This document shows, one piece after another, positions 8,701 to 25,499 of a stretch of 64,000 nucleotides of DNA. A program made the position numbers and the translations under genes. The notes below the pieces were generated by a model. That model was not told the DNA's origin, made no database searches, and saw nothing but the letters and a program-made list of their open reading frames with translations. The DNA comes from Candidatus Eiseniibacteriota bacterium (GTDB lineage: Bacteria > Eisenbacteria > RBG-16-71-46 > SZUA-252). Positions within the stretch are counted from its first letter, which is position 1. Each line of letters begins with the position of its first letter. The DNA is taken from positions 4,446 to 68,445 of the forward strand of contig DASXTQ010000019.1 in assembly GCA_036505295.1 (NCBI GenBank). The letters run 5' to 3'.

Positions 8701-11700
8701 GGGGGCCGAGCGCTATGGGTTCTCTCGAATCGCTCGGGTCAACCTCCGGGGGTCCGGGGTCACAAGGCGGCATCACTAACGGCTCGGGCCAGCTCGCGGT
8801 CCGCTACCGGGCGCCGAACGCGGCCCCTGCCGCGGATTCGATCTTCGCGAGCGGCGGCTCGCTCGGTCCGGTCGGGATCCGCGCCGCGACGGCTCCCGGC
8901 GCGACCGTCGCGCTGCGCGTGTCGCCCAAGTCGCTGAGCTGGACGGCCGGCGTGCCGGAGAGCGTGCTCGTGGAGGCCGTCGATTCGTTCGGGAACGTTG
9001 TCGTGACGGACGGCGCGCCGGTCACGATGCGCGGAGCGGGCTCGGTCGTGTGGGGCCCGGCCTCGGGCCCGCTCGTCGCGGGCCGGTTCGTGTCCACCGG
9101 ACGGGACACCGTGGCGGAGTCTGTCGCGATCGCGGCGGACCGCACAGGCGGCAGCAGCGGAACCGGCGGCACGGCGACGGTGTCTCCCGCCTCGCCCTCC
9201 GGCGCGATCCCCATCGCGGCCACCCGCGACAGCTTGACGGCCGACGGCAGGAGCGCGTCCACCGTCGTGCTCGGGCCGGTGCGGGACGCGTTCGGGAACC
9301 TCGTCAGCGCTGGAACGCTCGTGGGCGTGAGCGCGCAGGCGGGGACCCTGCTCGCCTCGGACGCCAGCGCGCTCTTCCCGGGCCTCGACTTGGCGACGGC
9401 CGCGGACGGCAGGGCATCCTTGATCCTGATCGCTCCGGGCGCGCCCGGTCCCGATACCCTCACCGCCGCATCCCGCGCCGGGTCCGCCACAGGAAGCCAC
9501 GCCTTCACCTACGTGCCGCCTCCTTCGCTGGCCTACGTCGCGGGCTCGCTGGCGCCGGGAGCCGTGATCCCCGGGGGAAGCGTCTCGTTCGCGCTCCAGG
9601 TGCGGAACACGGGCGCGGGCGCGATCCAGCTCGGGACCGGATCCCTCTTCTCGTTCGGCGCGGGCGCGACCACCTTCACGGCGGCGCTCGGCTCACCGGC
9701 CGCGGTTGGTGCGGGCGCTACGACGACGCTGACGTTCGCAGCGGGAACCGTCCCCGCCGCGCTGACCCCCGGCGCGTACGCGCCCAGCTTTCAGGCGGCC
9801 GGCACGGGTGCCACCGGGGACGCCTTCGACTTCTACCTGAGCCTCGCCGGGTCGCAGGTGAGCGTGCTCGGGCTGAGCGTCGCCGCGGTCAGCGCCTCAC
9901 CTGATCCCGCGCCGCTCGGATATCAGAATCTTTCGCTGGTCTTCGACGTCGCGAATCTATCCGGGACGCCGGGCGACCTCACGGGCGGCAGCCTGAGCTA
10001 CTCGACCGGGGCCTTCATCAGCGGCGCGCCGACACCTTCCCTCGGAACGACAATCCCGGCCGGCGGAACCACCCGGTTCACGTTTCCGGTCGCCGTGCCG
10101 TCGGGCGGGATCCCTTCCGGGACGATGATCAACTCGACGCTCCAGGCGACGGTCACCTTCGCGGGCACGCCGGTGGTTGCGTCGAGCTCCATCCCGCTCA
10201 GCTTCCGCGTGATCTCGGCCGCTCGCGTCGTCGCGGTCGCGGGCAGCGGGACGCCGCAGCGTCTCCTGCGCGGGCGGACGTTCGCTCCCACCTTGCGCGT
10301 CGCGAACACGGGCGCGGCGGCGGTCACCCTCAATCGAAATACCACGCGGCTCGAGCTCGACGCGGGCGGAACGACGCTTACGACGGCGCTATCCGCGAAC
10401 ACCGCCGTCCTCGCTTCCGACCAGGCGACCCTCGCGTTCGACTCGCTCGCGGTCCCGGCGGGCGGCGTGCCCAAGGGGCGCTACCGCGCGCGTGTCTTCC
10501 TCGACGGCACGGAATCCGGACAGGCCTTTGCCGACACCGTTCCCTCGGCGCCCGACAGCATCGACGTTCTCGACCCCGCGCTCCTCACGGTCCTTGCCGG
10601 GTCGCTCGCTCCGGGCACCGTGAGCGCGGGGCAATCGCGTTCCGTGTCGCTCACGCTCCGGAACGACGGTGACGTGCCCTTCGCGCTCGACCCCGCAACA
10701 GCGCTCAGGCTCGGCGCCCCGGTGTCGGTCACGCGCACGCTGAGCGCCTCGCCCACCCTGAACGCCGGCCAGTCGCTCAACCTTGCCTTCACCGGCGGAC
10801 CTCTGGGCTCTTCCGCCGCGCCTGGGGACGCCGCGGCGACGCTCGACGTGTTCGGCATGGAAGACGGCGTCGCACGCGCCCAGAGCCTCCCCGGGGGCAC
10901 GCTCCACGCGATGCCGCCGGCGCTGCTTCAGTACGTCGGGCGCTCGACCGCGCCGAGCCACATACGTCCGGGCCAGACGGTGGACCTCACCCTCGATGTT
11001 CAGAACAGGGGCGGGTCCCCCTTCGTGATCGATCCCGCCCAGACGCGCTTCACCTTGAGCGACGGCAGCGAGGTCATGACCGGCCTCGCCTCCGGCCCCG
11101 CCTTTCTGCTCGCACCGAGCACCCAGGCCGCGCTCGTGTTCCCGGGCGTTCTCGTCCCCGCGGCGATGGCGAGCCAGCCCTATCGGGTGGACCTCGCGAT
11201 CGGCGGGACCGAATGGGCGCTGGCCGCGAGCGCCGCCGCGACCTCTCCCGACAGCGAGCTCACCGTGCTCGGGCAGCTCGCCGCGATCCAGGTCCGCGGC
11301 GTCGACGCGGCCGTGCCGGTCCAGCTCGTGCGGGGCGGGCCGCCGATCCGCGCATGGGGGCTCGAGCTCTTGCCGCTCGTCCAGACCGGCGTTTCGACGA
11401 AGGATTCCCTGACGTCGGTCGCGATCACCATCGTCGCCGACGGCTCCACCGGCCTCCCGCCCGCGTCCTCGGTGTCCTCGATCTCGCTCCGCGATCGCGT
11501 GGGTGCGCTCCTCGCGCAAGGGGCGCCGCCTCCGGGCGCGCCGAATCCCTTCACCCTCAGCCTGACCCAGCCGCTCATCATGACGAACGGGCCGGAATCG
11601 CTCTTCGTCGATGTCGCGTTCCGCCCAGGCTCGTCCGCCGTCCGTGTCGCGCTCCAGGTCGCGCAGGCGAACGACCTCGTGGCCCTCGACGCGCTCACCG

Positions 11701-12065
11701 GCACCCGCGTGCCCATCGTGGGGGGCGGCGGGCTTCCATTCGCGGCGCTCGCCTCGCGCGAGATCACGTTCTTCGACCGGGCGCACGGCTATCCGAATCC
11801 CTTCCACGCCGGGAGCGAAGCGGTCCTTCTCTCCTACGTTCTTGGCCAGGACGCTTCGGTCAAGGTTTCCATCTACACGCTCCTGGGCGACCTGGTGCGG
11901 GAGCTGTCGCTCCCTTCGGGAGGCGTCGGTGGCGCGAGCGGCTTGAACGAAGTGCGTTGGGACGGACGGAACGGCAAAGGAGAGATCGTGCGCCCCGGTG
12001 TCTACGTCGCCCGGATCGAAGGACCGGGGGTGAGCGAGCAGGTCAAGGTGGGGGTGCTGCGATGA
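5793..12065 (+). CDS. Giant (2090 aa) Ig-like repeat cell-surface protein with type-A T9SS/FlgD-Ig C-terminal sorting domain
   Basis: The N-terminus carries a signal peptide. Most of the protein is Thr/Ser/Gly/Ala-rich beta-repeat (BIG/Ig-like). The C-terminal ~90 aa (NPFHAGSEAVLLSYVL...VSIYTLLGDLVRELSL...EVRWDGRNGKGEIVRPGVYVARIEG...KVGVLR) matches the T9SS CTD / FlgD_ig pattern. Confidence 0.8.
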   Translation: MQETTQPRRSRAKAKRRRTRAPAFRGTVVAMALLGSVLAPPAIAGPGTGTAIILGPSPIAVTDSSIWTIQYAPTEDFSATGGLVDVVIPSGWTPPQTSSPISPGYVSWTDDNYVNSVVTVGDTIRLFLGAPPKDPFQAGGSVSVLYGAGGGHASAHPQTTAQDTVYFRVRSDPTLTGSPAAIQFSPWVSVVPGRVASAKVVDGANTVVGTLTRTTDQDSTQLFLRGYDKYGNLTRLIRANWTLTGGVGAPVPSNGTGTVLKLDTPGTAYAIADSAGVWSDSTGAITVVHGAYAGLAMTAPGSVAAGTAFPVTAGSRDADGNTITGGPGSAASLTYIAFADSVGPTPADPNLVSAGAILSSGVYSGSLIARKAGAFYFSVIDSTAGYLSSRHGVAVSPGGPDRIALTPDTLRLTAGVPDTVTVRVVDAFGNRSPVPAPETLTLWTDRPAGTFQNVAGTTTIFEITIPAFADSARFRFRDTQRTTAEGRVRAIDANGTSPFLGTAGAPVFTQPNVPAAVVLTATPDTLVANGVDSVLVSGAALDSFGNAVAQGERFAFDGGALLTEVTDQDPGTPGAQLLADSTGAVRGFVRVGVTAGLGGATVQSERGSATGAAPIRLLAGAPSGAITLSASPDSLAADSLATLTLGAAGLHDANGNQVENGEKYTVSTTLGAIQNADADPAPGIQIPASGGGISLSLFGGDSLGTAQVTATALRNGSSTGTLGIRLVPGAVSASRSTVTADSPVPVGASGSVVAITLRDGQDHPLGGVQAASVVVTVVGASASTTPLASATDSGGRIDFRATATIPDTGSVRVTARGIPLAAEPGIVFQPGPLDHYTVAGPAPPLTAGSGIILTINAHDSFGNSLPGQNGNVLRPTVTSGGATVPDSVILAGGAASIPVTPTLASPLTIVVSDGPRSVTYGPVAVNPPAGLTMSPDSLSLTPAQAGTVTVTARDGQGNPISGLALTVFLGGPSAMGSLESLGSTSGGPGSQGGITNGSGQLAVRYRAPNAAPAADSIFASGGSLGPVGIRAATAPGATVALRVSPKSLSWTAGVPESVLVEAVDSFGNVVVTDGAPVTMRGAGSVVWGPASGPLVAGRFVSTGRDTVAESVAIAADRTGGSSGTGGTATVSPASPSGAIPIAATRDSLTADGRSASTVVLGPVRDAFGNLVSAGTLVGVSAQAGTLLASDASALFPGLDLATAADGRASLILIAPGAPGPDTLTAASRAGSATGSHAFTYVPPPSLAYVAGSLAPGAVIPGGSVSFALQVRNTGAGAIQLGTGSLFSFGAGATTFTAALGSPAAVGAGATTTLTFAAGTVPAALTPGAYAPSFQAAGTGATGDAFDFYLSLAGSQVSVLGLSVAAVSASPDPAPLGYQNLSLVFDVANLSGTPGDLTGGSLSYSTGAFISGAPTPSLGTTIPAGGTTRFTFPVAVPSGGIPSGTMINSTLQATVTFAGTPVVASSSIPLSFRVISAARVVAVAGSGTPQRLLRGRTFAPTLRVANTGAAAVTLNRNTTRLELDAGGTTLTTALSANTAVLASDQATLAFDSLAVPAGGVPKGRYRARVFLDGTESGQAFADTVPSAPDSIDVLDPALLTVLAGSLAPGTVSAGQSRSVSLTLRNDGDVPFALDPATALRLGAPVSVTRTLSASPTLNAGQSLNLAFTGGPLGSSAAPGDAAATLDVFGMEDGVARAQSLPGGTLHAMPPALLQYVGRSTAPSHIRPGQTVDLTLDVQNRGGSPFVIDPAQTRFTLSDGSEVMTGLASGPAFLLAPSTQAALVFPGVLVPAAMASQPYRVDLAIGGTEWALAASAAATSPDSELTVLGQLAAIQVRGVDAAVPVQLVRGGPPIRAWGLELLPLVQTGVSTKDSLTSVAITIVADGSTGLPPASSVSSISLRDRVGALLAQGAPPPGAPNPFTLSLTQPLIMTNGPESLFVDVAFRPGSSAVRVALQVAQANDLVALDALTGTRVPIVGGGGLPFAALASREITFFDRAHGYPNPFHAGSEAVLLSYVLGQDASVKVSIYTLLGDLVRELSLPSGGVGGASGLNEVRWDGRNGKGEIVRPGVYVARIEGPGVSEQVKVGVLR

Positions 12066-14005
12066 GAATGCGGCGATGCTTCCGTAACCGGCGCGTCCTG
12101 CGCCGCCAACTTCGCCGGGTCAACGCCCGGCGCCTGGTCCGCGCCATCTGCGCCGCGTCGCTTCTCCTCGCCGCGTTTTTCGGAACGCGGGCGCGCGCCT
12201 CGGGCCAGACCGCGGGGACGTCGGACCTTCTTTCGACGCCGGCGGGCTGGCCGAGCACGGGCGCCGCGAGCGGCTTCACAGGCGTGGCGCTCGATCCGCT
12301 CGCGATCTACATGAATCCGGCCGGCCTGGCGGCGCAGGATGAGCGCTCCTTCCTGGTCCACCACGGAATGCTCCAGTTCTCCACGACCTGGGACCTTGCC
12401 GCCGTCTCCTATCCCGTTCCCGGTCTTGGAGGCGTCGGCCTCGGCTTCGTGCGGATCGGAACCGGCGGGATCGACGCCTACGACGCGGGGAACCGGCCGC
12501 TGGGCTCGATCGTCTACCGCGAGACGGCGGCGGCCGTCAGCGTCGCGCGACGCGTGCGCGGGCCGATCTGGGGCGGGCTCACCTTCAAGATCTTGGGGCA
12601 GTCGCTCGGCGACGTCTCGGCATCGGCCCCCGCGCTCGACGTGGGTTTCCTCTACCGCCCGGCCGTGCTGCGCGGTGGTCAAATCGGCGTGTCGGCGCAA
12701 AACGTCGTCGCGGGCTCGCTGGACCTCGGCGGCGCGTCTTCGGTGCTTGACCGATCGTTCCGCCTCGGGCTCGGAAGCCCGGAATGGCGCCTGAACCCAA
12801 TGAGCGCAGGAAGGGTCGTGCTCGACGTCGGGACCCGCGGGAAGGAAGGGATGAAGCCGCGCGTCGGCCTCGAGTTCACGCGCGCGGGACTGGGCGCCGT
12901 TCGCGCCGGGATTTCGAACGGGGACCCCATTTTCGGCGTGGGGCTCCGCTTCCGGCGCTACGGCTTCGATTACGCCTACCAGAGCGGAAGCGTCGAGGCG
13001 ACCCAGCAGTTCGCGTTACGCATGGCGTGGGGCGAGCCGATCAGCAAGTACGAATCGCGCCGCATGGCCGAGCTTCGGCGGGCGGCGGAGGATTCCATCC
13101 GCGCGGAACGCGCGGGCGAGATCGCACGCGACCGCAAGAAGGCGGAGATCTCGGAGAGCTCGGGTGACTGGGAGACCGCGCTTGTGCTCTGGGAGGTTCT
13201 CCAACGCGCGGATCCCGGCGAGCCGAGCTACACCCAGCGTGCCGGGCGGGCGCGTGTCGAGATCGAGCGGAACGCCCAGGCCGCGATTGCCTCGGAGAGC
13301 GTGCGCCGCCTCAGGTCCACGCTGGCGGAGATGGCCCGCCAGGCGCTCTCGCGGGGGGACGTCGAAGAAGCGGCGGGTCTCGTGCGCGGGATTTCAACCG
13401 GGGGCGGCTCGGATGGCGCGTCCCAGGACACCCTCGCCGCCCTTGTCCGGGACGTCGCCGCCGCGCGCGATCGTGCCGCCGCGCGCGCTCTCTCCCGCGC
13501 CGACTCGCTTGAAGAGCGGGGACGACTCCTCGACGCCGCGGGCCAGGTGGCGCTCGCGCTGAGGCTCAAGCCCGACGATCCGCGCGCACGCGCGCTGTGG
13601 GACGCCCTCCAGGGCTCGCTCGGCAAGAGCGCCTCGGAAGCGCAGACCCTGAGCCGCAAGCTGGCCGCTCTCGGCGCACTGAATGAAGTGGCGCGGGCGT
13701 TCGCGGAAGGACGGTATGCGGAGGCGAAGGCGGCGGTCGAGCGGTCGCTCGCGCTCGATCCCACGAGCCCCGAAGCGCGGGACTGGCGCGACCGAATCCA
13801 GCGCAGGCTCACGACGCCGAAGCCCGAGCTCGATGCGCGGATCAAGCAGCTCTACATCAAGGGCATGGAGGCGTTCACCGCGGGCGACTACCGCGAGGCG
13901 CTCCGGAACTGGGAGCAGATCCTCCTGCTCGATCCTCTGAACGAGAGCGCCCGTCGGAACGTTCTCGAAGCGAGGGAGCGGATGAAGTCGGAGGCGCGCC
14001 GATGA
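12062..14005 (+). CDS. Outer-membrane beta-barrel-like protein (PorV/PorP-like region) with C-terminal TPR repeats
   Basis: The ATG overlaps the stop of the giant gene (ATGA). A signal peptide is followed by alternating hydrophobic beta-strand patterns in the first ~330 aa. TPR-like helical repeats follow in the C-terminal half (e.g. YREALRNWEQILLLDPLNESARRNVLEARER). Confidence 0.65.
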   Translation: MRMRRCFRNRRVLRRQLRRVNARRLVRAICAASLLLAAFFGTRARASGQTAGTSDLLSTPAGWPSTGAASGFTGVALDPLAIYMNPAGLAAQDERSFLVHHGMLQFSTTWDLAAVSYPVPGLGGVGLGFVRIGTGGIDAYDAGNRPLGSIVYRETAAAVSVARRVRGPIWGGLTFKILGQSLGDVSASAPALDVGFLYRPAVLRGGQIGVSAQNVVAGSLDLGGASSVLDRSFRLGLGSPEWRLNPMSAGRVVLDVGTRGKEGMKPRVGLEFTRAGLGAVRAGISNGDPIFGVGLRFRRYGFDYAYQSGSVEATQQFALRMAWGEPISKYESRRMAELRRAAEDSIRAERAGEIARDRKKAEISESSGDWETALVLWEVLQRADPGEPSYTQRAGRARVEIERNAQAAIASESVRRLRSTLAEMARQALSRGDVEEAAGLVRGISTGGGSDGASQDTLAALVRDVAAARDRAAARALSRADSLEERGRLLDAAGQVALALRLKPDDPRARALWDALQGSLGKSASEAQTLSRKLAALGALNEVARAFAEGRYAEAKAAVERSLALDPTSPEARDWRDRIQRRLTTPKPELDARIKQLYIKGMEAFTAGDYREALRNWEQILLLDPLNESARRNVLEARERMKSEARR

Positions 14006-14030: not shown

Positions 14031-16496
14031 ATGAGTCCCAGGGCTGGACCGACCCGCCGCTTCCAGCTTCGAGTCCCAGCCGAGGACCGCCATCTCGCCG
14101 AGATCCGCGACTTCATCCAGGACGTCGGCGAGAAGATTCAGATACCCGGAAAGATCCTCGCCAACACGAAACTCGCGGTAGACGAAGCCTGCACCAACAT
14201 CGTGAAGCACGGTTACAAGGGGAAGACCGGCTTCATCGAAGTCGTGGTGACGGGAAACCAGCGCGAGTTCTCCATGGAGATCCGGGACCAGGGCGAAAGC
14301 TTCGACCTCCGCAACGTCAAGAGCCCCGATCTCAAGATGTACGTGGAGACGAGGAAGCGCGGCGGGCTCGGCGTCTTCCTGATGAATCAGCTCATGGACG
14401 ACGTCCGCTATCGCGGGGGCCCGGACGGCAACGTCCTCACGATGTCGAAGCATCTCGGGCGACGGCGTCGGGGGGTGGGAAAAGAGGGCGGGCGTCCCCG
14501 CTCGCTCCGTTTCGCGTACACCCTTCAGGCGTTCGGCGCGATGACGTTCCTCGTCGCGGTCGCCTTCGGCGTGATCCACACGCGGCAGATGCAAAGCATC
14601 CGCGGAGAAGCGATGTCCCACGCCCGAAGCGTCGCGCGCGGGCTCGCGCTTCCGGCGGCGGAGGTGCTCTCGCGGCCCGAGCCGATGTCGATCGAGCAGA
14701 CGCTCCTGAATCAGTCCATCCGCGCCGCGCTCCGGGCAAACCCGGAATACGTGTCGGCGCGCGTCCTCGATACGGCCGGGCGCGTGTGGGGCAGCAACCG
14801 ATTCGAGGAGCTCTTCACCACGGAGCGAAGCGGGCTGAGGCAAGGATCCGGAGCGGGCCTCGGCAACCAGTGGGCGCCCCCCCGCTACCTCGTGAGCAAC
14901 GGCGTCGGCACGATCGTCGAGCCAGTGCGGGCAGGCGCGACGGGGAAGGCGCTGGCCACCGTGCTCGGCTACGTGCAGATCGGCATCAGCGAGCAGGCGA
15001 TCGGCGCACGAATCGTGGCGGCGCGCGCCGAGCTTGCGGGGATCGCGCTTCTCACGCTGTTTCTCGGCTGCCTTCTCTCGATGCTCCTGATCGGAATCTT
15101 CGTGCGGCCGATCCAGGCGCTCTCCGACAGCGTGCGCGCGATCGGCGAAGGAACGATGGTGGCCGACGTCGGCGCTTCCGGGAACGAGGAGATCGACGAG
15201 ATCGCGCGCGCGTTCAACGAGATCACGGCCAAGTTCCGCGCGGCCCAGGGCAATCTCGTCGAACAGGAGCGCCTTCAGAAGGAGATGCAGGTCGCGCAGG
15301 AGATCCAGCAGAGCCTCCTTCCCCGGCGGGTGCCGGAGCTGGAGGGCTACGAGATCGGAGCGCTCTACCGCGCGGCCAAGGAGGTCGGAGGGGACTATTA
15401 CGATTTCGTGCAAGTCGACGAGCGGACGGTGGGCGTCGTGGTCGCGGACGTGTCGGGCAAGGGAGTCCCTGGCTCGCTCGTCATGACGATGATCCGGACC
15501 GCGCTTCGCATGGAGGCGCGCGGGAATCGGTCGGCCTCGGACGTCATGGCCCGAATGAACACGTTCGTCACCGAGGACATGAAGAAGGGGATGTTCGTGA
15601 CGATGTTCTATGTGGTGCTGGATTCGGTGAACCGCGTCGTGACCTACGCCAGCGCGGGGCACAATCCGATGATCCTCTACCGCGGCGAGACGGACTCGAC
15701 CTACTTCCTGAAACCGAAAGGGATTCCCGTGGGGATCGACGCGCCGGACGCGGATCTCTTCCGCCGCACCATCAGCGTCGAACGGCTCACGCTCAAGCAG
15801 GAAGATATGATCGTGATCTACACCGACGGAATCACGGAGGCCATGAATCCCATGCGGGAGCAGTTTGGCGAGGCGAGGCTTCTCGGCGCGATCAAGAGGC
15901 ACGCGCATCTCAGCGCGCAGGGGTTCTCGGAGGCGTTGGACCGGGAGATCCATGAGTTCACCGCGGGCGCGCTCCAGAACGACGACATCACGCTGGTCGC
16001 GATCAAAGAAAAGGTGCAGCCCGAGGAGCGCATCGAATCGAAGCGGCGCGAGCTTTTCCGGCTCGTCGAGCAGGAGGGGGTGCCCGTCGGGGAAGCGTGT
16101 GACCGGCTGCAGGTCGCACCGTCGACCTACTACCGCTATCGCCGCCGGGTGGCCGAAGTGGGAGGGGAGGAAGGCCTGAAGAGCATTCGCCCGCGCTCAG
16201 GGCTCGCGAAGGCGAGCCTCGAGGAAGAGGCGGCCATCCTTTCGCTCGTGAAAGCGGAGCCTCTCATGGGGGCCAAACGGGTCGCGGAGCTGCTCCGGGC
16301 GACGGGCCGCTCGAGCCCTAATTTGACCCCGGCCGCGGTCTACGCAACCCTAAGGCGTCACGGACTTAACACGAAGGAAAAAAGGCTCGAGTTCGCCCAA
16401 AACGGAACCGATAGACGTATGGCAAGGCTGGCCCAGGCGCTTTCGGGGGCTACCCGGGCCGACCGCGCCCCAGAAGAACAAGGAGGGGGAGAATGA
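14031..16496 (+). CDS. Partner-switching fusion protein: RsbW-like anti-sigma Ser kinase (HATPase_c_2) + 2 TM/HAMP + PP2C/SpoIIE phosphatase + C-terminal IS481/IS3-type HTH domain
   Basis: N-terminal KLAVDEACTNIVKHGY...GGLGVFLMNQLMDDVRY (GHKL anti-sigma kinase). Two TM segments flank a HAMP-like linker. GGDYYDFV...VVVADVSGKGVPGSL (PP2C). The C-terminus APSTYYRYRRRVAE..GLKSIRPRS...AKRVAELLRATG...AAVYATLRRHGL resembles the transposase N-terminal HTH (HTH_23/HTH_21). Confidence 0.8.
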   Translation: MSPRAGPTRRFQLRVPAEDRHLAEIRDFIQDVGEKIQIPGKILANTKLAVDEACTNIVKHGYKGKTGFIEVVVTGNQREFSMEIRDQGESFDLRNVKSPDLKMYVETRKRGGLGVFLMNQLMDDVRYRGGPDGNVLTMSKHLGRRRRGVGKEGGRPRSLRFAYTLQAFGAMTFLVAVAFGVIHTRQMQSIRGEAMSHARSVARGLALPAAEVLSRPEPMSIEQTLLNQSIRAALRANPEYVSARVLDTAGRVWGSNRFEELFTTERSGLRQGSGAGLGNQWAPPRYLVSNGVGTIVEPVRAGATGKALATVLGYVQIGISEQAIGARIVAARAELAGIALLTLFLGCLLSMLLIGIFVRPIQALSDSVRAIGEGTMVADVGASGNEEIDEIARAFNEITAKFRAAQGNLVEQERLQKEMQVAQEIQQSLLPRRVPELEGYEIGALYRAAKEVGGDYYDFVQVDERTVGVVVADVSGKGVPGSLVMTMIRTALRMEARGNRSASDVMARMNTFVTEDMKKGMFVTMFYVVLDSVNRVVTYASAGHNPMILYRGETDSTYFLKPKGIPVGIDAPDADLFRRTISVERLTLKQEDMIVIYTDGITEAMNPMREQFGEARLLGAIKRHAHLSAQGFSEALDREIHEFTAGALQNDDITLVAIKEKVQPEERIESKRRELFRLVEQEGVPVGEACDRLQVAPSTYYRYRRRVAEVGGEEGLKSIRPRSGLAKASLEEEAAILSLVKAEPLMGAKRVAELLRATGRSSPNLTPAAVYATLRRHGLNTKEKRLEFAQNGTDRRMARLAQALSGATRADRAPEEQGGGE

Positions 16497-17170
16497 AGGG
16501 AATCGACGTCTACGTCGAAGAGGCGTCCCAAAACCAAGGTGTGTCGATTCTGCGCGTCTCCGGCTACGTGGACACCACGACGAGCCCCGATCTGGAGCGG
16601 CGTCTCCAAGCGCTGCTCCGCGAGAAGCGCTACCATGTGGTGGTGGACCTCGCGCGCGTGGAATACATCTCGAGCGCCGGCTGGGGAATATTCATCAGCG
16701 AAATCCGCGAAATCCGCGAGCACGGCGGCGACCTGAAGCTCGCCGGGATGGCTCCCGACGTCAAGGAGGTCTTCGACCTTCTCGAGTTCGAGAACATCTT
16801 GCAGGCGTATACGGACGCCGACCTCGCGGTCGCCTCCTTTGGGCCGATCGTGCCGGCGAATACCACCACGATTCCGGGCTCTGGGGCCGGCGGGGCGCCT
16901 CATTCGGCATCCGAAGCCCATGGCCCGCAACGCAGCGAGACGGTCCTCTCCGACGAGGACCTCGTGCGCGAGATCGTGCGCCAGCACCCCGATTACGGCC
17001 TCATGAGGATCCAGAAAGATCTCCGGAAACCGGAGCGCGGCGGGCGCGAGATGAACCCTGTGCAGCTCTACGTGCTCCTCCGCAGGCTCGAGCTCGACAC
17101 GCGCGAGCGCCGCGAAGCGTTCGCCAAGGGAGACGCCCCGGCGGCCAGTTCGAGCCCAACGAGAAGCTGA
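16493..17170 (+). CDS. STAS-domain anti-sigma-factor antagonist with C-terminal HTH_21-like (integrase-type) extension
   Basis: The start overlaps the upstream stop (ATGA). SILRVSGYVDTTTSPDLERRLQALL...VVVDLARVEYISSAGWGIF (SpoIIAA-like STAS). The C-terminus DLVREIVRQHPDYGLMRIQKDLRK...NPVQLYVLLRRLEL resembles the IS3/IS481 HTH-like domain. Confidence 0.8.
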   Translation: MKGIDVYVEEASQNQGVSILRVSGYVDTTTSPDLERRLQALLREKRYHVVVDLARVEYISSAGWGIFISEIREIREHGGDLKLAGMAPDVKEVFDLLEFENILQAYTDADLAVASFGPIVPANTTTIPGSGAGGAPHSASEAHGPQRSETVLSDEDLVREIVRQHPDYGLMRIQKDLRKPERGGREMNPVQLYVLLRRLELDTRERREAFAKGDAPAASSSPTRS

Positions 17171-17184
17171 CACTCGAGTTTCTC

Positions 17185-17222
17185 GGCCCCGCCTCTTCGA
17201 GACGCGGGGCCCTCACTTTTTC
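17185..17222 (+). terminator. Rho-independent terminator downstream of the partner-switching operon
   Basis: GGCCCCGC-(11 nt loop)-GCGGGGCC followed by CTCACTTTTTC, located 15 nt after the STAS gene stop. Confidence 0.6.
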
Positions 17223-17367
17223 GGCTTGACCGGAAACGCTCGACACGCTACCTTCGAGTCACGGCCTCCTGCAGCACAGCCGCATCTCCCGTGACTCGAC
17301 CCCGCCCTCACAACGCAGAGCCCGTTAGGGAACCTATCGGGATTACGATCCTCCCGAGACTCGACTC

Positions 17368-19638: not shown

Positions 19639-21390
19639 ATGCCGCTCATTCTCGGGCGCAAGCCCGCGTACTGTCTCGCCACCCTCGTCTTGCTCGCCGC
19701 GCACGTTTCGCGTTCGGACGCCGAAATTCTCCTGAACGAAGTGTTGTACGACCCCGAGGGGGCCGATGAGGGATCGGAGTTCGTGGAACTTTGGAATCCG
19801 GACACCGCCGCCATTTCGCTCCGTGGGATCGTCGTGGAGTCGGGCGATGGCTCGCGGCCCGGGGTTTGGACCCCGGTGTACGTGGGAACGGACGGCGACT
19901 CGGTGTCTCCCCGGCACGCGTTTCTGATCCCGGGGTCTGTCCTTCTCGCTCCCCTCCAGAACGGTCCCGACGCGATTCGTCTGACCCGCGCGGGCGTCGT
20001 GCTCGACCTCTTGGGTTACGGGGCGCTCACGGCAAGCGAGCTCTTTGAGGGCGCGCCCGCCGCGGACGCGCCATCCGGACAATCCCTCTCCCGTGCCGGC
20101 GATGGTGTGGACACCCAATGGAACGCAGCGGACTGGGCGCCCGAACCAAGCCCCACGCCGGGGCGCGCGAACCACCCCGACGTCCGGCTCTCCTTCACGC
20201 GCGGAAGCGCCCGTCTCGTGCCGGATGTCCCCTGGCCGGGGGATGTCGCGACCCTGCGCGCGACCGTGAAGAATCTCGGGCGCCTGGCGGTCCCGGCGGC
20301 TCGATGGCAAGCCGAGGTCGTCGTGCGTGTCGGAGATGGACCGGATCGCCCGTGGTCCGCCGCGCCGGTGGGGATCAGCCCAGGCTCGACCGTCGCTCCG
20401 GGAGAAAGCGCGAGCGTTCAATGCGCGCTCTTCGCGCCTCCGCCCGGGAGGTTCGGTCTCCGGCTTTCCCTGCGCGATCTCGGCGTCGAGCCCTTGACAG
20501 ATGGGTCCGCGGTCACGGATACCGCGCTCCTTGAGACGCGGTCGACGGCCGGCCCGCTCGTCGTGAACGAAATCGCGTTCCGGGATCGAGGGGCGGGGGA
20601 ATGGGTCGAGCTGATGGCGCGGGAGGAAGTCGCGGACGTGGGCCTCTTCGCTCTTTCCGACGCGGGCGGCCGCGCCTATTCGATCGATCGGGGGCCGACA
20701 CCGCGCCCCGCTCACGCGGGGGCGATCTTTGTGCTCGCGCAGTCGCCCGAGATAGTGCGCACGACCTATTCGCTTCCGGACAGCGCGGTCCTGGGATGCC
20801 TCGGCGGCTGGGTGGCCCTCAACGACGCCGATGGGGATGACGGTTTCGCCGACCGTGTGCGCGTCGTCGATGCGTCCGGCGCACCGTCGGATGTCGTCCC
20901 CTATCGCGCGGGATACACCGCGCGGGACGGATCGCTCGAGCGCCTCGGAACGATGCTCCCCAGCGCGTCGGCGAGCTCTTGGACGGAATCGATCGACCCT
21001 CGAGCAGGAACGCCGGCTCGGCCGAACTCGATTCAGGCCCCCGGGAAGGGAGCGGGTGACCGGGGCGCGCTTCTCATCGCGAGCGCCCGGGTGGTTCGGA
21101 GGGCGCCCGGACTGGCGGTCGCCCCGGTCGTGCTGCGATTCAGCGAGGAGGCGCGCGGGAGCCGAGTCCGCGTCTTCGTGCACGACCTCCTGGGCCGTCC
21201 GCGGCGGCTCCTCGTCGACGGGCAGCGAATCCTGGGTGAAGGAGCGTTTCTCTGGGACGGGCGCGACGACCAGGGTGCTCCCGTGCCGGCCGGGATCTAC
21301 ATCGTGCGGGCCGAAACGATTCCGGAAGACCGCGAGCCCATCAGGAGCGCAGCCCTCACGCTCTCCGTGGTGGATCGGTGGACGCGATGA
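19639..21390 (+). CDS. Secreted lamin-tail-domain (LTD) protein with two LTDs and a FlgD-Ig/T9SS-like C-terminal domain
   Basis: A strong RBS (AAGGGGGAA) is followed by a signal peptide. ILLNEVLYDPEG.DEGSEFVELWNP and LVVNEIAFRDRGAGEWVELM are LTD signatures. The C-terminus (RVFVHDLLGRPRRLL...FLWDGRDDQGAPVPAGIYIVRAE) is sorting-domain-like. Confidence 0.8.
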   Translation: MPLILGRKPAYCLATLVLLAAHVSRSDAEILLNEVLYDPEGADEGSEFVELWNPDTAAISLRGIVVESGDGSRPGVWTPVYVGTDGDSVSPRHAFLIPGSVLLAPLQNGPDAIRLTRAGVVLDLLGYGALTASELFEGAPAADAPSGQSLSRAGDGVDTQWNAADWAPEPSPTPGRANHPDVRLSFTRGSARLVPDVPWPGDVATLRATVKNLGRLAVPAARWQAEVVVRVGDGPDRPWSAAPVGISPGSTVAPGESASVQCALFAPPPGRFGLRLSLRDLGVEPLTDGSAVTDTALLETRSTAGPLVVNEIAFRDRGAGEWVELMAREEVADVGLFALSDAGGRAYSIDRGPTPRPAHAGAIFVLAQSPEIVRTTYSLPDSAVLGCLGGWVALNDADGDDGFADRVRVVDASGAPSDVVPYRAGYTARDGSLERLGTMLPSASASSWTESIDPRAGTPARPNSIQAPGKGAGDRGALLIASARVVRRAPGLAVAPVVLRFSEEARGSRVRVFVHDLLGRPRRLLVDGQRILGEGAFLWDGRDDQGAPVPAGIYIVRAETIPEDREPIRSAALTLSVVDRWTR

Positions 21391-22220
21391 GGGCCGTCGC
21401 GGTCTTTCTCCTGTGGAGCGCGGCGGCGCCGACGCCGCACGCCTGGGCCGCATTCGAGCTCCGGGACGCGAGCCCGGACGCTTTGGGTGCCGCTTCCACC
21501 GATGGCGCATGGCACCCTTTCGATGATGGATCCGGCCCGATGCCATCAGGGGATCCCGGAGACTCTGCGTCGGCCGGCATGACCGCTCTTGCGTGGCGTG
21601 CTGGGGCAACCCGCGCGTCCCCCTTCGGCGCCGATGCGCTGTCGCTGAACCAGCTCGACCTCTCCCTGCAGCGAAACACCCACGCGTTCCGCCTTGAATA
21701 CACCGCGCTCTCCGGCCCTGGGACAGGCGAGTCGTCGGTCCGTCTCGAGGTCCGGGAACGTGCCCCACGCCCGATCGCCCTGGCCCTCCGCGTGGAGCGG
21801 CTCGATCTTCTCCCCGACGACGCGGAAGCCTGGGGCGGCTGGGCGCTCGGCGGTTGCGCCCGGGGCGCATGGGGCGGACGGGTGGACGTGTGGATCGGCG
21901 GCGACCGGCTCTTGAGAACTCGAGCGCTGGAGCGGGGGGCCGTCCCCGCCACCCTGGAGCTGGGCGCGTCGCTGAGCGCGGGGTCAGCGCGCGCGGCGAT
22001 CCTGGACCGTTGGCAGCCGGACGGGACCCATAGCCCGCGCATGGCGCTCGAGGTCCCGCTCGGGGACGCCTTGCGCCTATGGCTGGGACGCGCCTCCGCG
22101 CCAGGCAGGATTGGAGCGGCGCTCGAAGTCAGGACAGGGAACCTCGAGGCGTCCTGGGGGAGGCTCGACTATGCGTTCGGAGGAACGATCACGGGCATCC
22201 GTTTAGGGCTCGCGTCCGGG
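21387..22220 (+). CDS. Hypothetical secreted beta-rich protein, with no in-frame stop before the convergent terminator (possible frameshift/pseudogene; 3' end uncertain)
   Basis: The ATG overlaps the LTD gene stop (ATGA). The signal peptide is MRAVAVFLLWSAAAPTPHAWA|AFE, and alternating beta-strand-like sequence follows to about 22.2 kb. The frame stays open to 27032, straight through the terminator and the antisense of the next gene, so the true end is not resolvable from sequence. Confidence 0.3.
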
Positions 22221-22255
22221 AAAAAAGGGCGGCCCGCCGTGAAGGCGGGCCGCCG
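22221..22255 (-). terminator. Rho-independent terminator of the minus-strand T9SS-cargo gene
   Basis: On the plus strand it reads AAAAAA-GGGCGGCCCGCC-GTGAA-GGCGGGCCGCC. On the minus strand this is an 11-bp GC stem followed by TTTTTT, 35 nt after the minus-strand gene stop. Confidence 0.6.
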
Positions 22256-22289
22256 CGAGTCTTCGAAGCTCCACCGCGAGCGAGGCGCG

Positions 22290-25139
22290 CTAACGGAGGA
22301 GGATCAGCTTCTTCGAAGCCCTGAATCCCTTCGTATCGAGCACGTAGAAGTAGGCTCCGCTCGGGAGCTGGTGCCCCTGATCATCCGCCCCGTTCCAGCG
22401 CGCAACGTACTCGCCGGGAGGCTGGACGTGACTCACCAGCGTGCGGACCAAGGCCCCGCTTACGTTGTAGATGCGGATATCGACCTGGCCCGCTTGTGCC
22501 ACAGAGTAGCGGATCGCGGTCTCGGGATTGAACGGGTTCGGCATGTTTTGCCCGAGGCTGCTCCGGAACGTCGGAGCTTCCTCGCCCGATCCCTCCTCCA
22601 CCCCCGAAGCCACGTAGCAGGCGTTTTCCTTGAAGTAGTTGTGGACGATCGCGTTCGCGAGCTGGAGCCTTTCGCCCCCTTCCTCGATGGCGTTGAAGCT
22701 GAAGCCGAAGAAGACGGACTTCGCGCTGTCCGCCGGGCTGAACGTGTTGTAATCGGTGGCGTAACGCGTCGCGGCGGGGAAACTGTTGGGATACGTGAGC
22801 AGGTTGCCCGACTTGCCCTGGTTCGCGGCCGGGGAAAGGGTGACCAGGTCAAACTGATTGATGATGGGGCAGCCCCCGTTCAGGTGCATGAACCGCCCCG
22901 CCGCGGGACCCCCGTTCACCCCTTTCACGACAGGATGGAGCGTGTCCTGAGGGGAGTTTTCCCAGTTATTCCGCAGCCAGGTCACGCCGCACGTGAAGGC
23001 GAGGAAGCCGTTGTAGTTGTTCGCGCCGCTGTTTGCCATGAGATCGTAGCCAACGTCGTCCCCGCTGATCCAGAAATTGCGGTTCTTCCCCGGCTGCTGG
23101 ATCCAGGATTGGATCACCGCCTGATCCTGAGGCGTGATGGTGAACGTGGAGAGATCCCCCGAGTGCCAGATGATCGTGGTGTACTGAAGCAGCTTGCCGA
23201 CGTCCGTCACCGGCCAGTGGTACTGGATATCGGCCGGGTCGGAGCCGCCGAGGCAGTTTCCAATTCCGCTCGTCGGACCGTTCACATCCCATGTGTCGTA
23301 CTTGAACCCGAGCCCGGTGAGCGCGGAGGCGATGTACGGTTGCGGCTCGCGCCCCGAGAAGTGATTCACGAAGAGGATCGACGCGAGGCTGTCGCTGCAC
23401 CCCATGGGCAGGTTGATGGCGGTCTTCACGGGCAGGATCGAAGCCGAGCGATAGTTCTGGTTCGTGATCGCGTCGACCGGGAAATAGGCGGTGACGTTCT
23501 GGCTGTCCGTCGCCGCGAAGTAGTACTCCAGCTTCGTATTCGCCGGGTAGCTTCCGGGGGGGACGTCGGCGAAGAAATGGGTCGGGAGCGCCGGCGCCAC
23601 GTGTTGGAGCGGGACCGAGTTGAACGACCCGCCGTTCAATCTGTAGAACATGAAGCCGTTCTTGTACCCGTGGGACGTGCTGACCTGCACGACGGTGCTG
23701 TCGCCGAGCGGGCTGTTGAAGTTATCGTCTCGGAAGAACGGGGTCGTCTCGAACGTGTCGTTGAAAAGGTCTATATCGCGCACGATGAAGCCGGGACCGG
23801 TCTGGCCGATGACTCCGATTGCGACGTTGTCGAACAACCCATACGTGTTCGAGGGAGACGAATTGCCGCCACAAAAGATGTCGGCGTAATCTCGGAGGCC
23901 CAACTCCACCTGCACGGAATCCTTTCCGCCCGCTCCAGGCAGCGTGATGGCCTGGCGGATCCAGTCTTTGTTCCCCCCGTAATAAACAAAGAAGGTCGGG
24001 TCGATCCAATTTCCCCACTGGGCGTCACCGATGTTCTTGGTCCGAAAATTCGTGTGGTAGAAGAAGCACGAGTTGAGCGGAAGGTTTCGGTAGACATCGA
24101 AATTGAGAAAGACGGTGCTGGCCCGGTTGGTCGCGACCGGCTTGGTCACGACGAAGTTGTCCAGATGGGGAACCAAGGTCAGGGTGGCCTGGTTCCAGTC
24201 GGTCCAGACCTTCGATTGATTCGTGGAACATATGTCCTCGGTCAGGACGTTGCTTTGGAGATAGAAGAAGTCGCCCGCGCCGAGGAACGTGGACCGCGTC
24301 CAATTTCCCATCCCGTTTTCCACGTTGTCAGAGAAAAGGACGTTCTGCCCCGTCTTGACGGTGATGTTGTCGATGATCCAGCCATCTCCATCGTAAAGTC
24401 CATCTGCGGAGGAGTAACCGACATCGCTGACAAACGTGAATCGGAACGGCACCGGAAGAGGATTGTTGCCGGTGCCGTCGTTTCCCGCGCGCCATTTCGA
24501 GATGATGGAATCGGGAATGATCACCGAGAAGGTGTCGCAAAGGGAGCTATTCGGGACTTTCCCCGTAAAGAAGGCGAGCTGGGTCCAGTTGTTTATGAGG
24601 TCGTTCACTTCGACATACCCATAGTCATAAAGGGGCTCGGCGTCGAAATGATGCCTGAAGCTGAGCGTCGCGGACGACCCCGATGGGACGGAGCCCGTGG
24701 GGAAAGAGTTCGTGAGGTATTGGGTCCAGTCGTTGTCGTACCCAGCGCGATTCGAGTCGTAGATCCAGGAAGAATCGACGGTCCCGCACCACCACGAATG
24801 GTTCTGGCACCCGAGGAAGGTATCGATGTGCCATGCGGTCGGCTTCGCGGAGGCGTCGTAGTGGGTCCACCCTCCCTCGTTGTTCGGGCTGGTGTGCGTC
24901 TCGAGACTGTCGATGAACACCCAGACCGTCTCTCCCGCGGCCGCGGTGCGCATCGATCGCCCGGCGCGGGCCGGGGGCGATCCCACATCGGGCCCCGCCT
25001 CGGGGATCTGCGTCGGGACGACACCCGGGAGGATCGTCTCACCGGTCGCCGCGGGCGCGTTCGAAGAGGCCGCAGAGCTGCCGTAAAGGGATGCCGAGAG
25101 AATGAGACACACAATCAACGCGGTAGCACTACGTCGCAT
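22290..25139 (-). CDS. Large secreted protein (950 aa) with type-A T9SS/FlgD-Ig C-terminal sorting domain
   Basis: Start at internal Met (MRRSATALIVCLILSASLYG signal peptide). The C-terminus NPFNPETAIRYSVAQAGQVDIRIYNVSGALVRTL...ARWNGADDQGHQLPSGAYFYVLDTKGFRASKKLILLR matches the T9SS CTD. The body is Trp/Asn/Gly-rich beta-rich, and no HExxH was seen. Confidence 0.8.
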   Translation of the reverse strand: MRRSATALIVCLILSASLYGSSAASSNAPAATGETILPGVVPTQIPEAGPDVGSPPARAGRSMRTAAAGETVWVFIDSLETHTSPNNEGGWTHYDASAKPTAWHIDTFLGCQNHSWWCGTVDSSWIYDSNRAGYDNDWTQYLTNSFPTGSVPSGSSATLSFRHHFDAEPLYDYGYVEVNDLINNWTQLAFFTGKVPNSSLCDTFSVIIPDSIISKWRAGNDGTGNNPLPVPFRFTFVSDVGYSSADGLYDGDGWIIDNITVKTGQNVLFSDNVENGMGNWTRSTFLGAGDFFYLQSNVLTEDICSTNQSKVWTDWNQATLTLVPHLDNFVVTKPVATNRASTVFLNFDVYRNLPLNSCFFYHTNFRTKNIGDAQWGNWIDPTFFVYYGGNKDWIRQAITLPGAGGKDSVQVELGLRDYADIFCGGNSSPSNTYGLFDNVAIGVIGQTGPGFIVRDIDLFNDTFETTPFFRDDNFNSPLGDSTVVQVSTSHGYKNGFMFYRLNGGSFNSVPLQHVAPALPTHFFADVPPGSYPANTKLEYYFAATDSQNVTAYFPVDAITNQNYRSASILPVKTAINLPMGCSDSLASILFVNHFSGREPQPYIASALTGLGFKYDTWDVNGPTSGIGNCLGGSDPADIQYHWPVTDVGKLLQYTTIIWHSGDLSTFTITPQDQAVIQSWIQQPGKNRNFWISGDDVGYDLMANSGANNYNGFLAFTCGVTWLRNNWENSPQDTLHPVVKGVNGGPAAGRFMHLNGGCPIINQFDLVTLSPAANQGKSGNLLTYPNSFPAATRYATDYNTFSPADSAKSVFFGFSFNAIEEGGERLQLANAIVHNYFKENACYVASGVEEGSGEEAPTFRSSLGQNMPNPFNPETAIRYSVAQAGQVDIRIYNVSGALVRTLVSHVQPPGEYVARWNGADDQGHQLPSGAYFYVLDTKGFRASKKLILLR

Positions 25140-25499
25140 GGGGGAGCTCCTTCTGGATCGATCGACTGGTGCGGAAAGAAGGTGGATTCGAATCGATGCC
25201 CGATCTCGAGGGCGCTCCGGGGCGAAGGACAAGCCTGGCACGGCGGGACATCTAACGGCAGACCGGCACGGGCTGGGCATGTCGCCTCGGGGAGACCTCG
25301 CATGCTGGATAGTTGCGACATCCGCTCCCCGACCGCGACAGCCATTCGGAAGCGGCGTGCAGTATTATACTCGATCAGGGACCTCACTTCCACCGAAATC
25401 GGCTGGGCTGTTGGGTTTGTCGCATCCTTGCGAGGCTCGCGCCGGGCTCGATCGCGCTGGTCCAGGGCGGCGTTGTTGCCCCTGGGACCCTCTGCTATC

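Follow-up and report, generated by a model that had tools for sequence, protein, structure and literature searches.

Transposase-type helix-turn-helix tails on both proteins of a membrane-sensor partner switch from Candidatus Eiseniibacteriota and other phyla

In the Bacillus partner switches RsbW-RsbV-RsbU and SpoIIAB-SpoIIAA-SpoIIE, the serine kinase, the STAS antagonist and the PP2C phosphatase are separate proteins, and the outcome of the switch is the release of a sigma factor. In the HsbR/HsbA (/HsbD) system of Pseudomonas aeruginosa, one bifunctional protein with PP2C and RsbW-type kinase domains controls a STAS protein whose phosphorylation state picks partners other than sigma factors, including a diguanylate cyclase; HsbR is soluble, has the domain order REC-PP2C-kinase and contains no helix-turn-helix (HTH) domains. 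Rv1364c of Mycobacterium tuberculosis holds PP2C, an RsbW-like kinase and STAS in one chain, with a cytoplasmic PAS input and no HTH module. According to two reports, SypE of Vibrio fischeri consists of an N-terminal RsbW-like kinase, a central input and a C-terminal PP2C and acts on the single STAS protein SypA (PMC10120452, PMC4517449). Partner switches are usually pictured with a bare STAS protein that contacts a sigma factor or, in newer work, an enzyme. Here we describe a pair of overlapping genes, A and B, in a 64,000-nt stretch of a Candidatus Eiseniibacteriota contig (DASXTQ010000019.1; the whole stretch is called the window below). The pair encodes a membrane-bound kinase/phosphatase and its STAS partner, and both proteins end in domains of DNA-binding type that resemble the front part of transposases. 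The kinase/phosphatase/STAS core is already known; the HTH-bearing pair is widespread in the Fibrobacterota-Chlorobiota-Bacteroidota (FCB) group, which makes up a large and for the most part uncultured section of the bacterial tree, and has not been studied. In the literature that we searched, we found no description of HTH-bearing STAS or PP2C partner-switching proteins or of STAS recoding. The two open reading frames (ORFs), which are joined by an ATGA overlap of the A stop and the B start, and their signalling domains are as follows.

14031-16496, plus strand: ORF A, 821 aa, bifunctional membrane-bound sensor (kinase and phosphatase) whose C-terminus is a bipartite HTH
14073-14450, plus strand: RsbW-like GHKL serine kinase of A, aa 15-140 (Pfam HATPase_c_2, E 1.9e-31)
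14511-15101, plus strand: first transmembrane segment (aa 161-183), variable sensor (aa 184-334) and second transmembrane segment (aa 335-357) of A, from hydropathy windows
15084-15221, plus strand: HAMP domain of A, aa 352-397 (PF00672, 30 bits)
15420-16007, plus strand: PP2C/SpoIIE serine phosphatase of A, aa 464-659 (SpoIIE, E 1.4e-49)
16493-17170, plus strand: ORF B, 225 aa, STAS antagonist with an HTH_21-like C-terminal tail
16523-16813, plus strand: STAS domain of B, aa 11-107 (STAS, E 2.2e-19)
16673-16675, plus strand: predicted phospho-acceptor Ser61 of B, within DLARVEYISSAGWG

The domains of A thus follow each other in the order RsbW-like kinase, transmembrane segment, periplasmic sensor, transmembrane segment, HAMP, PP2C and bipartite HTH tail. 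The kinase domain carries the N box DEACTNIVKHG (aa 51), the G1 box RDQGESFD (aa 85) and the G2 box GGLGVFLM (aa 111), and its sequence matches in the PDB are RsbW (6m36) and SpoIIAB. All four metal-site motifs of a PP2C phosphatase were found (GGDYYD at aa 453, ADVSGKG at aa 472, YTDGITEA at aa 597 and NDDITL at aa 650), the block of residues 481-500 is 100% conserved, and RssB, Rv1364c (3ke6) and SiaA are the relatives of this domain in the PDB. The periplasmic region of about 150 aa gives a faint sCache_3_2 signal, which is clearer in relatives, and is the most variable part of A; its ratio of nonsynonymous to synonymous substitution rates (dN/dS) is 0.35, calculated, like all such ratios below, from the window and ten orthologous loci. 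Such an arrangement would place the sensor in the periplasm and the kinase, HAMP, phosphatase and tail in the cytoplasm. In B, Ser61 aligns on the serine that is phosphorylated in SpoIIAA (Ala in the 1tid chain) and is invariant among orthologs. At the sequence level, three parts of an RsbW/RsbV/RsbU-type module are present, namely the kinase, the phosphatase and the STAS domain with its serine. A and B together hold all the parts for a reversible serine phosphorylation of B by A. No sigma factor gene adjoins the pair, either in the window or in the neighbourhoods of the relatives; a third partner of the switch may be encoded at another site, or the HTH tails may take its place. A separate ORF of the window (45268-45963, plus strand, about 210 aa), which lies 28 kb from the pair, matches the model of the first HTH subdomain of A weakly (E 0.004); it may encode a sigma-70 region-4-type HTH, i.e. 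an extracytoplasmic function sigma factor.

With the Bacillus systems, A and B share the three folds, matching motifs and the position of the phospho-serine, but the kinase and the phosphatase are fused in a membrane sensor and both partners have an HTH. SypE/SypA is similar in that kinase, input and PP2C form one protein, no sigma factor takes part and the locus is concerned with envelope or polysaccharide; the input of SypE is, however, a cytoplasmic receiver, whereas that of A is a periplasmic sensor between two transmembrane segments followed by HAMP, and SypE and SypA both lack an HTH tail. From HsbR, A differs in domain order, in membrane location and in its HTH domains. The parallel to HsbR/HsbA is that relatives of the A/B module have GGDEF cyclases immediately downstream. 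Rv1364c, despite its different domain order, parallels the variants described below in which PP2C, HTH and three STAS domains lie in one chain.

The C-terminus of A had been likened in the initial annotation of this DNA to the N-terminal HTH region of IS481/IS3 transposases, the range quoted being residues 660-821, and B had been credited with an HTH_21-like tail in residues 140-225. Both ranges proved right, the folded parts being residues 664-805 of A and 147-212 of B. The tail of A is made up of the following parts.

16020-16196, plus strand: subdomain 1, aa 664-722, a three-helix HTH of the HTH_23/HTH_28 type
16182-16217, plus strand: flexible basic segment that links the two HTH subdomains, aa 718-729, IRPRSGLAKAS, of low predicted local distance difference test score (pLDDT <70) and without secondary structure
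16206-16445, plus strand: subdomain 2, aa 726-779, of the HTH_32/HTH_21 type, followed by basic C-terminal helices, aa 780-805, LNTKEKRLEFAQNGTDRRMARLA

When residues 654-821 were compared with Pfam in isolation, HTH_23 (36.6 bits, gathering threshold 24.6), HTH_29 (32.9 bits, threshold 28.1) and HTH_28 (26.8 bits, threshold 25) were all matched above their gathering thresholds, and HTH_32 was matched with 28.6 bits, below its threshold of 33.7. The tail corresponds to positions 1-114 of the 284 positions of the NCBIfam IS481 transposase model (E 1.2e-16), with weaker matches to the N-terminal regions of the IS630 (8e-10) and IS3 (7e-9) models. Subdomain 1 has a third helix of invariant sequence, STYYRY(K/R)RR, and the block of residues 781-800 has a conservation of 0.86. 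The stop codon of A lies 16 aa past the conserved tail, and B begins at once. An AlphaFold2 model of the tail, computed from 16 aligned A tails (mean pLDDT 80.5; 83-91 in the helices of subdomain 1), consists of two three-helix bundles (helices 3-20, 25-32 and 36-49, and 69-81, 87-97 and 106-115 in model numbering), connected by the basic low-confidence linker, and two more C-terminal helices. In a Foldseek comparison with the PDB, the top matches of this model were all bipartite DNA-binding domains, i.e. TnsB of a type V-K CRISPR-associated transposon, the paired domains of Pax6 and Pax5, Mos1 and Tc3, with probabilities of 0.75-0.99. The E-values of these matches were weak (0.07-0.5), which is expected because the two subdomains are flexibly linked. 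The order of an HTH_23/28/29 domain followed by HTH_32, together with the bipartite fold, is shared by the A tail with the front of IS481, IS630 and IS3 transposases and with Pax, Tc3, Mos1 and TnsB. As modelled, the A tail forms a full bipartite HTH of the paired-like kind, the layout by which transposases and Pax proteins read DNA.

The tail of B follows the STAS domain in frame, behind a linker.

16847-16930, plus strand: hypervariable, disordered linker of B rich in Pro, Ala, Ser and Gly, aa 119-146 (pLDDT <40, dN/dS 0.44)
16931-17128, plus strand: tail of B, aa 147-212, HTH_21-like and helical, with a basic last helix LELDTRERREAFAK

The linker is gapped among orthologs, with an identity of 0.28 over residues 121-140, and at the protein level no lysine run was seen in the linker of the window protein (its DNA was not scanned for homopolymers). 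The predicted structure of B (overall pLDDT 65.5) contains the STAS fold and, in the tail, helices at residues 154-164, 170-177, 189-198 and 204-211 with a pLDDT of about 80. In the window protein itself the match to HTH_21 stays below threshold, but HTH_21 was matched by all 16 of 16 diverse orthologous B tails, with a best E-value of 2.8e-6. A profile of the B tails aligned with the second subdomain of the A-tail profile over 65 columns (hhalign probability 96.5%, E 8e-10), and BLASTP of the two window tails gave 33% identity over 61 aa (E 5e-9). As judged from these alignments, the B tail is homologous to subdomain 2 of the A tail. Two independent captures of the domain are not needed, since one tail is homologous to a part of the other.

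Sequences of this type next to signalling domains could also be the debris of an insertion sequence (IS) that is decaying and was joined to the pair by a local frameshift or an assembly error, or a recent neutral capture without a function. Two observations could be taken to favour such an origin: several fragments of the family are named 'transposase' by the automatic annotation of the Joint Genome Institute (JGI), and in one Eisenbacteria genome an insertion of a single nucleotide parts the B tail from STAS. The conservation of both proteins is, however, difficult to reconcile with it. Full-length homologs of A form more than 120 independent clusters with 67-99% identity, nearly all of them with a precomputed HTH_23 match, and those of B at least 120 clusters with 77-100% identity; one B homolog, whose name comes from a Candidatus Eisenbacteria metagenome-assembled genome (MAG), is 100% identical to the window protein. 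The tails are gap-free across orthologs, with identities of 0.6-0.9, and 35 columns of the B tail are invariant. Their dN/dS values are 0.18 (A subdomain 1), 0.24 (A subdomain 2) and 0.17 (B tail), compared with 0.16 for RsbW, 0.16 for HAMP, 0.10 for PP2C and 0.06 for the nearly invariant STAS domain, and 0.31-0.44 for the linkers. The tails are thus under purifying selection at a level like that of RsbW and HAMP. The G+C content of third codon positions is 0.83 in the first HTH of A and 0.91 in the B tail, similar to the catalytic domains (0.84-0.89), although it drops to 0.73 in the second HTH and to 0.57 at the C-terminal end of A. Gene order around A and B is kept in an Eisenbacteria relative at 70% identity (on a 3.1-Mb contig), and the location of the module is constant, as it occupies the same syntenic position in relatives of 70% identity and in other phyla.

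Traces of a mobile element are also missing. As the initial annotation had stated, there is no DDE catalytic core and there are no terminal inverted repeats: Pfam returned no DDE/rve family match in A or B at E-values up to 10, none of 199 repeat pairs represented IS-type inverted repeats flanking the 14-17.3 kb region (the closest were long-range chance matches), and no further copy of the module was found within the 64-kb window. Unlike IS481, IS630 and IS3 elements, A and B form a single syntenic copy fused to signalling domains; A is not a transposase, as the DDE domain, terminal repeats and mobility are absent and the HTH region alone is present. Given this conservation, the selection on the tails, the lack of DDE, repeats and copies, the third-position G+C content over most of the tails and the occurrence of the architecture in several phyla, we consider the IS remnant or frameshift artefact to be refuted and assign it a negligible probability.

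The single-nucleotide insertion was found in a nanopore-derived Eisenbacteria chromosome (L002:12475-13182 and L034), in which the B linker has gained one C (CCAAG-GAGCC versus CCAAGCGAGCC) and the tail is out of frame. The near-identical contig L001:12475-13137 from another sample is intact, and the insertion, which lies outside any homopolymer, probably reflects an error of assembly. The fragments named 'transposase' by the JGI pipeline (P0241, P0243, P0244, P0246, P0252-P0254 and P0257) are C-terminal pieces of A on short contigs, and they received this name because the tail alone is present. Such auto-annotation of fragments inflates mobile-element counts in metagenomes.

The distribution of the architecture was followed with two surveys. 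An exhaustive HMMER search of 1.84 billion representative sequences with the A-tail profile gave 883 matches at E <=1e-3, of which 140 were at E <=1e-10. It supersedes a word-indexed search for homologs of the isolated A tail, which gave 24 fragments, all from this family, without any transposase, and is uninformative on the origin of the tail. The best 147 matches (50%-identity representatives) were classified with hidden Markov models (HMMs) built from the A/B family. In about 55 of these 147 the module directly follows PP2C; the complete order RsbW-HAMP-PP2C-HTH1-HTH2 was found in 19, and 8 extend into three STAS domains, some of the proteins extending into TPR repeats (Pfam). Transposase-like proteins (HTH plus rve) enter the ranking at an E-value of about 1e-12, and the clearest of them, P0373 (HTH plus rve_3, E about 5e-12), ranked behind some 55 PP2C fusions and many proteins of a second large group among the best 147, in which two tandem copies of the module lie at the N-terminus of large proteins. 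These tandem-HTH proteins are another non-transposase use of the module.

Several of the tandem-HTH proteins are family-2 glycosyltransferases of up to 2949 aa (P0329, 2949 aa; P0316, 2000 aa; P0321, 1140 aa; P0305, 726 aa; also listed in this group are P0276 and P0288). P0276 is a short tandem-HTH protein from Candidatus Microgenomates in which no glycosyltransferase domain was detected. We considered the tandem-HTH glycosyltransferases as partners or outputs of the switch in the same organism and dropped this idea; the sole one with a named organism, P0276, is from Microgenomates, and the window contains no copy.

In the second survey, the species genomes of GTDB were scanned with the B alignment, and the 80 loci obtained were dissected with the family HMMs and a jackhmmer-iterated tail model. 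They fell into the following classes.

35 loci: A with tail and B with tail
7 loci: A with tail and a stand-alone STAS without tail
3 loci: A without tail and B with fused tail, labelled Zixibacteria, WOR-3 and Cloacimonadota
8 loci: A without tail and a short STAS ORF
18 loci: STAS with tail, A absent within 6 kb upstream
11 loci: bare STAS, A not detected within 6 kb upstream

The first class comprises all complete Eisenbacteria loci and also loci labelled Zixibacteria, Gemmatimonadota, FCPU426 and Firestonebacteria. Five members of the second class belong to a lineage in which A continues into three STAS domains, and the other two come from the single Eisenbacteria genome with the 1-nt linker insertion. 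In seven of the eight loci with a short STAS ORF the tail lies in another frame, and the eighth is cut by a contig end. Among STAS proteins adjacent to A, the B tail is close to universal, and the A tail is present in a subset. Proteins consisting of STAS and a tail occur in MAGs labelled Eisenbacteria, Zixibacteria, Ignavibacteriales, FCPU426, Firestonebacteria, WOR-3, Cloacimonadota and Gemmatimonadota. The fusions are thus old and predate the divergence of several FCB phyla. The artefact feared in the initial annotation, a frameshift joining an IS remnant to the genes, is contradicted by the full-length ortholog clusters, the synteny and the tail dN/dS of 0.17-0.24, and the same fusion, for which a survey of relatives had been suggested, was indeed found in Eisenbacteria and across FCB-group phyla. 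The proposal that transposase domains had been recruited twice into one regulatory operon is too local, as PP2C-HTH and STAS-tail proteins occur across these phyla. The tails may derive from a transposase or may share an HTH ancestor with one, and the functions suggested for them in the initial annotation were a tethering of the module to DNA or an additional interaction.

The lineage with three STAS domains encodes a giant protein of the order RsbW-sCache-HAMP-PP2C-HTH1-HTH2-STASx3 (L036:61-3963, L037, L038, L063 and L065; P0271, P0275 and P0269). It includes a MAG labelled Krumholzibacteriota, and some 2 kb downstream of the giant gene there are two stand-alone STAS genes without a tail.

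Our preferred reading is that the tails are a nucleic-acid-binding output, the ligand most probably being DNA, and that B corresponds functionally to a response regulator whose receiver is STAS and whose effector is the HTH_21-like domain; we put its probability at roughly 45%, and it is thus held tentatively. The switch would probably act without a sigma factor. The periplasmic/HAMP input of A would set the balance of its kinase to its phosphatase activity, and A would phosphorylate and dephosphorylate Ser61 of B. Access of B to DNA would depend on the phosphorylation state of STAS, unphosphorylated B being held on the A kinase at the membrane and phospho-B being free, or the reverse. The HTH of A might bind the same sites as B or neighbouring ones; alternatively, the A kinase might mask this HTH until STAS displaces it, and the HTH would then replace the missing sigma factor. 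Envelope or biofilm-type genes would be the likely targets. The strongest argument from comparison is that STAS is nearly always joined to a domain of the HTH2 type, be it as STAS-tail, as STAS-tail across two frames or as HTH1-HTH2-STASx3, which is expected if the HTH is an effector controlled by STAS. The B tail is independent of the A tail. In favour of this reading we also count the domain assignments and catalytic motifs, the conservation of both fusions, the selection on the tails, the two modelled HTH bundles with their bipartite fold matches, the invariant third helix, the lack of an adjoining sigma factor gene, and the three-gene unit with its envelope and cyclic di-GMP neighbours described below. 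If the tails bind DNA, the pair represents a third way from an envelope signal to transcription, beside two-component and sigma/anti-sigma systems, and a clear case of the DNA-binding front end of a transposase reused in cellular signalling.

Several observations weigh against this reading. The match of the B tail of the window protein to HTH_21 (20-21 bits, E 4e-4 to 8e-4) is below the gathering threshold of 28.1, and we know of no experimentally defined role of HTH_21. B has one HTH-like subdomain only, and the net charge of this tail is as low as +2. A is anchored in the membrane, which limits its access to DNA, and the E-values of the fold search given above are weak. Neither a window-wide repeat search nor an alignment of the intergenic region downstream of B from 29 loci revealed a DNA target; the intergenic element after B looks like an ordinary promoter, and the inverted repeats around its -10 region are lineage-specific; neither could be attributed to the HTH domains.

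The main rival reading is a function in docking, which agrees with the low charge of the B tail and with the invariance of almost its entire surface, not just of a recognition helix. The HTH-like tails would then be protein-protein modules, that of B holding STAS on A or recruiting another protein, for instance a diguanylate cyclase or one with TPR repeats; in one variant, the B tail would pair with subdomain 2 or another part of A and make the kinase/phosphatase reaction quasi-intramolecular. The homology of A subdomain 2 and the B tail agrees with this, their best-conserved shared element being the C-terminal helix L(N/D)T(K/R)E(K/R)R.(E/A)FA, and so does the lineage in which STAS is fused in cis behind the HTH, where proximity of STAS to A is favoured. 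GGDEF and TPR proteins adjoin the module in other phyla. On the other hand, the B tail exists where the A tail does not, i.e. in the three loci with tailed B and tail-less A, in seven more through a frame change at an A run and in the 18 loci without A within 6 kb upstream, and subdomain 1 of A has an invariant basic third helix followed by a basic linker, typical of DNA readers. We consider docking possible but rather doubtful as the explanation of the tails. Docking of tail to tail as a general role is weakened by the loci with a B tail but no A tail.

The basic C-terminal helix raises another alternative, namely that the B-type tail uses an arginine-rich helix to bind RNA, the ribosome or the membrane and acts post-transcriptionally, as has been put forward for some outputs of STAS alone, its likeness to an HTH being structural only. 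The tail ends of other phyla are indeed very basic (...GWWxVFxILRRxxLLxRRSRFRxARR), and a post-transcriptional STAS output is known for SypA. The corresponding helix of Eisenbacteria is much less basic (DTRERREAFAK), HTH_21 is matched in 16 of 16 orthologs and A possesses a full bipartite module of DNA-binding type, so that this alternative appears improbable.

Eight GTDB loci with STAS beside a tail-less A, labelled Ignavibacteriales, Zixibacteria or Calditrichaeota, differ from the window in that their STAS and tail ORFs are joined only via a run of nine to eleven A (L046:6369, L047:6369, L049:6373, L052:2748, L058:657, L061:6369, L066:6372 and L072:6368). The run encodes a conserved KKK, often as GGA AAA AAA AAG, with A_AAA_AAG in frame. 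The 0-frame stop codon of STAS follows 3-6 codons past KKK in these eight loci and 2-8 codons past it across relatives, and seven of the eight have the tail in the -1 frame, the remaining one having it in the +1 frame. When these STAS sequences were used to scan metagenomes, another 80 loci (L083-L162) were obtained, of which 74 could be evaluated. An A9-A10 run is present at the junction in 61 of the 74. The tail requires a shift to the -1 frame at 38 loci and to the +1 frame at one, whereas in-frame tails occur both with the run (20 loci) and without it (13 loci). In L055, too, the run is kept though the tail is in frame. The -1 frame has the consensus KKK-S-x-x-[VIL]-T-[RK]-[LV]-T-V-V-D in 35 distinct loci, where it spans the 0-frame stop; no ATG, GTG or TTG lies between the run and the domain in 14 of these 35, and the remainder have no start at a consistent position.

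Homopolymer A10 occurs in both the shifted and the in-frame classes, which means that the frame is set by the flanks and not by the length of the run. This argues against sequencing error and simple phase variation. Both explanations of the split STAS-tail genes, sequencing error and phase variation at the DNA level, are also unlikely in view of the eight GTDB MAGs from different projects and the 38 metagenome contigs. The junction is a probable case of IS3-style programmed slippage or -1 frameshifting in a signalling gene, as judged from its sequence. In IS3 OrfB, HTH_21 comes after the frameshift site. Runs of at least nine A are established sites of transcriptional slippage and are used by IS elements (PMC1088944), and IS3 is typified by a frameshift through which a DNA-binding ORF is fused to the ORF that follows it (PMC5009743). 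Slippage at an A run would be common to IS3 orfA-orfB, Thermus-type dnaX and the STAS-tail junction of the relatives. Unlike IS3 and dnaX, the gene of the relatives encodes a signalling protein, and the putative trans-frame part is a small HTH-like domain. STAS or anti-sigma antagonists were not mentioned in the surveys of slippage and frameshifting or in a genome-wide frameshift census. If it is true recoding, the poly-A junction adds a signalling gene to the few non-mobile bacterial genes with programmed slippage.

The junction also gives indirect support to an IS-type origin of the B tail. A more specific proposal is that STAS-HTH_21 is a DNA-binding output controlled by serine phosphorylation whose tail was exapted from an orfA/orfB junction of the IS3/IS481 type together with its slippage signal. 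Ignavibacteria, Zixibacteria and Calditrichaeota would still use the A10 signal to produce STAS-only and STAS-HTH isoforms in a set ratio, and Eisenbacteria would have hard-wired the fusion and added the full bipartite HTH to the sensor kinase/phosphatase. We regard this proposal as unlikely; if true, it would mean that a domesticated transposase front end, recoding signal included, serves as the output of a phylum-spanning signalling system.

Outside A and B, the surroundings contain three further elements of interest.

12122-14005 (start approximate), plus strand: upstream gene of a three-gene unit, encoding a secreted protein with a signal peptide, an N-terminal half that resembles a beta-barrel and a C-terminal half of the coiled-coil/TPR type
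17185-17221, plus strand: terminator-like hairpin after B, GGCCCCGC, an 11-nt loop, GCGGGGCC and then CTCACTTTTT
17226-17254, plus strand: promoter-like element of the downstream gene, TTGACC, 17 nt, TACCTT

The product of the upstream gene has TPR matches. The gene occupies the same position in the Eisenbacteria relative at 70% identity, and full-length homologs lie directly 5' of the A homolog in a locus from Ignavibacteriales (L046, E 1e-45) and in a phylum-level relative (L041, E 2e-36). The conserved unit thus consists of three genes, the barrel/TPR gene, A and B. The product of the upstream gene is likely a third component of the system, possibly a periplasmic or outer-membrane partner of the sensor of A.

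The genes that come after the module in other phyla encode GGDEF cyclases, TPR proteins or a ParA/BcsQ-like ATPase, and in L041 an ATPase of this kind lies between A and B (the coordinates of the GGDEF and ATPase genes are L041:6675-7673, L046:6751-8382 and L041:4914-5669). The GGDEF and ATPase neighbours link the module to control by cyclic di-GMP and of the biofilm type. The Eisenbacteria unit is embedded among giant predicted surface proteins, including ones with Ig-like and FlgD_ig domains (window positions 5793-12065, 19639-21390 and 21378-27032); they include a protein of 2090 aa with Invasin_D3/Big_1 and a C-terminal FlgD_ig, one with a lamin-tail domain and FlgD_ig, and one of 1884 aa without any Pfam match.

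The hairpin after B was recognized by direct reading of the sequence and is absent from the results of a consensus terminator scan, whose limits are exceeded by its loop and by the distance from the stem to the T run; equivalent G+C hairpins occur in several orthologous loci. The promoter-like element was not found by a sigma-70 consensus scan. When the 29 Eisenbacteria loci were aligned, its TTGAC and TA-C-T blocks were the sole conserved intergenic columns in the first 14 rows, which were those inspected (L003-L016). Its sequence suggests that it is probably the promoter of the downstream gene, which encodes a membrane protein of 720 aa. In L008-L015, an inverted repeat of 10-13 bp (GGGGAGCCCGTAC...GTACGGCTCCCC) surrounds the -10 motif, with arm sequences that vary between loci; it could be an operator.

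Farther downstream in the window, positions 49509-50816 contain tandem units of 126 nt (42 codons), seen as nine overlapping 300-nt copies with 63-76% identity to the reference. The array lies inside an ORF (49349-50797, plus strand) and probably encodes a repeat protein.

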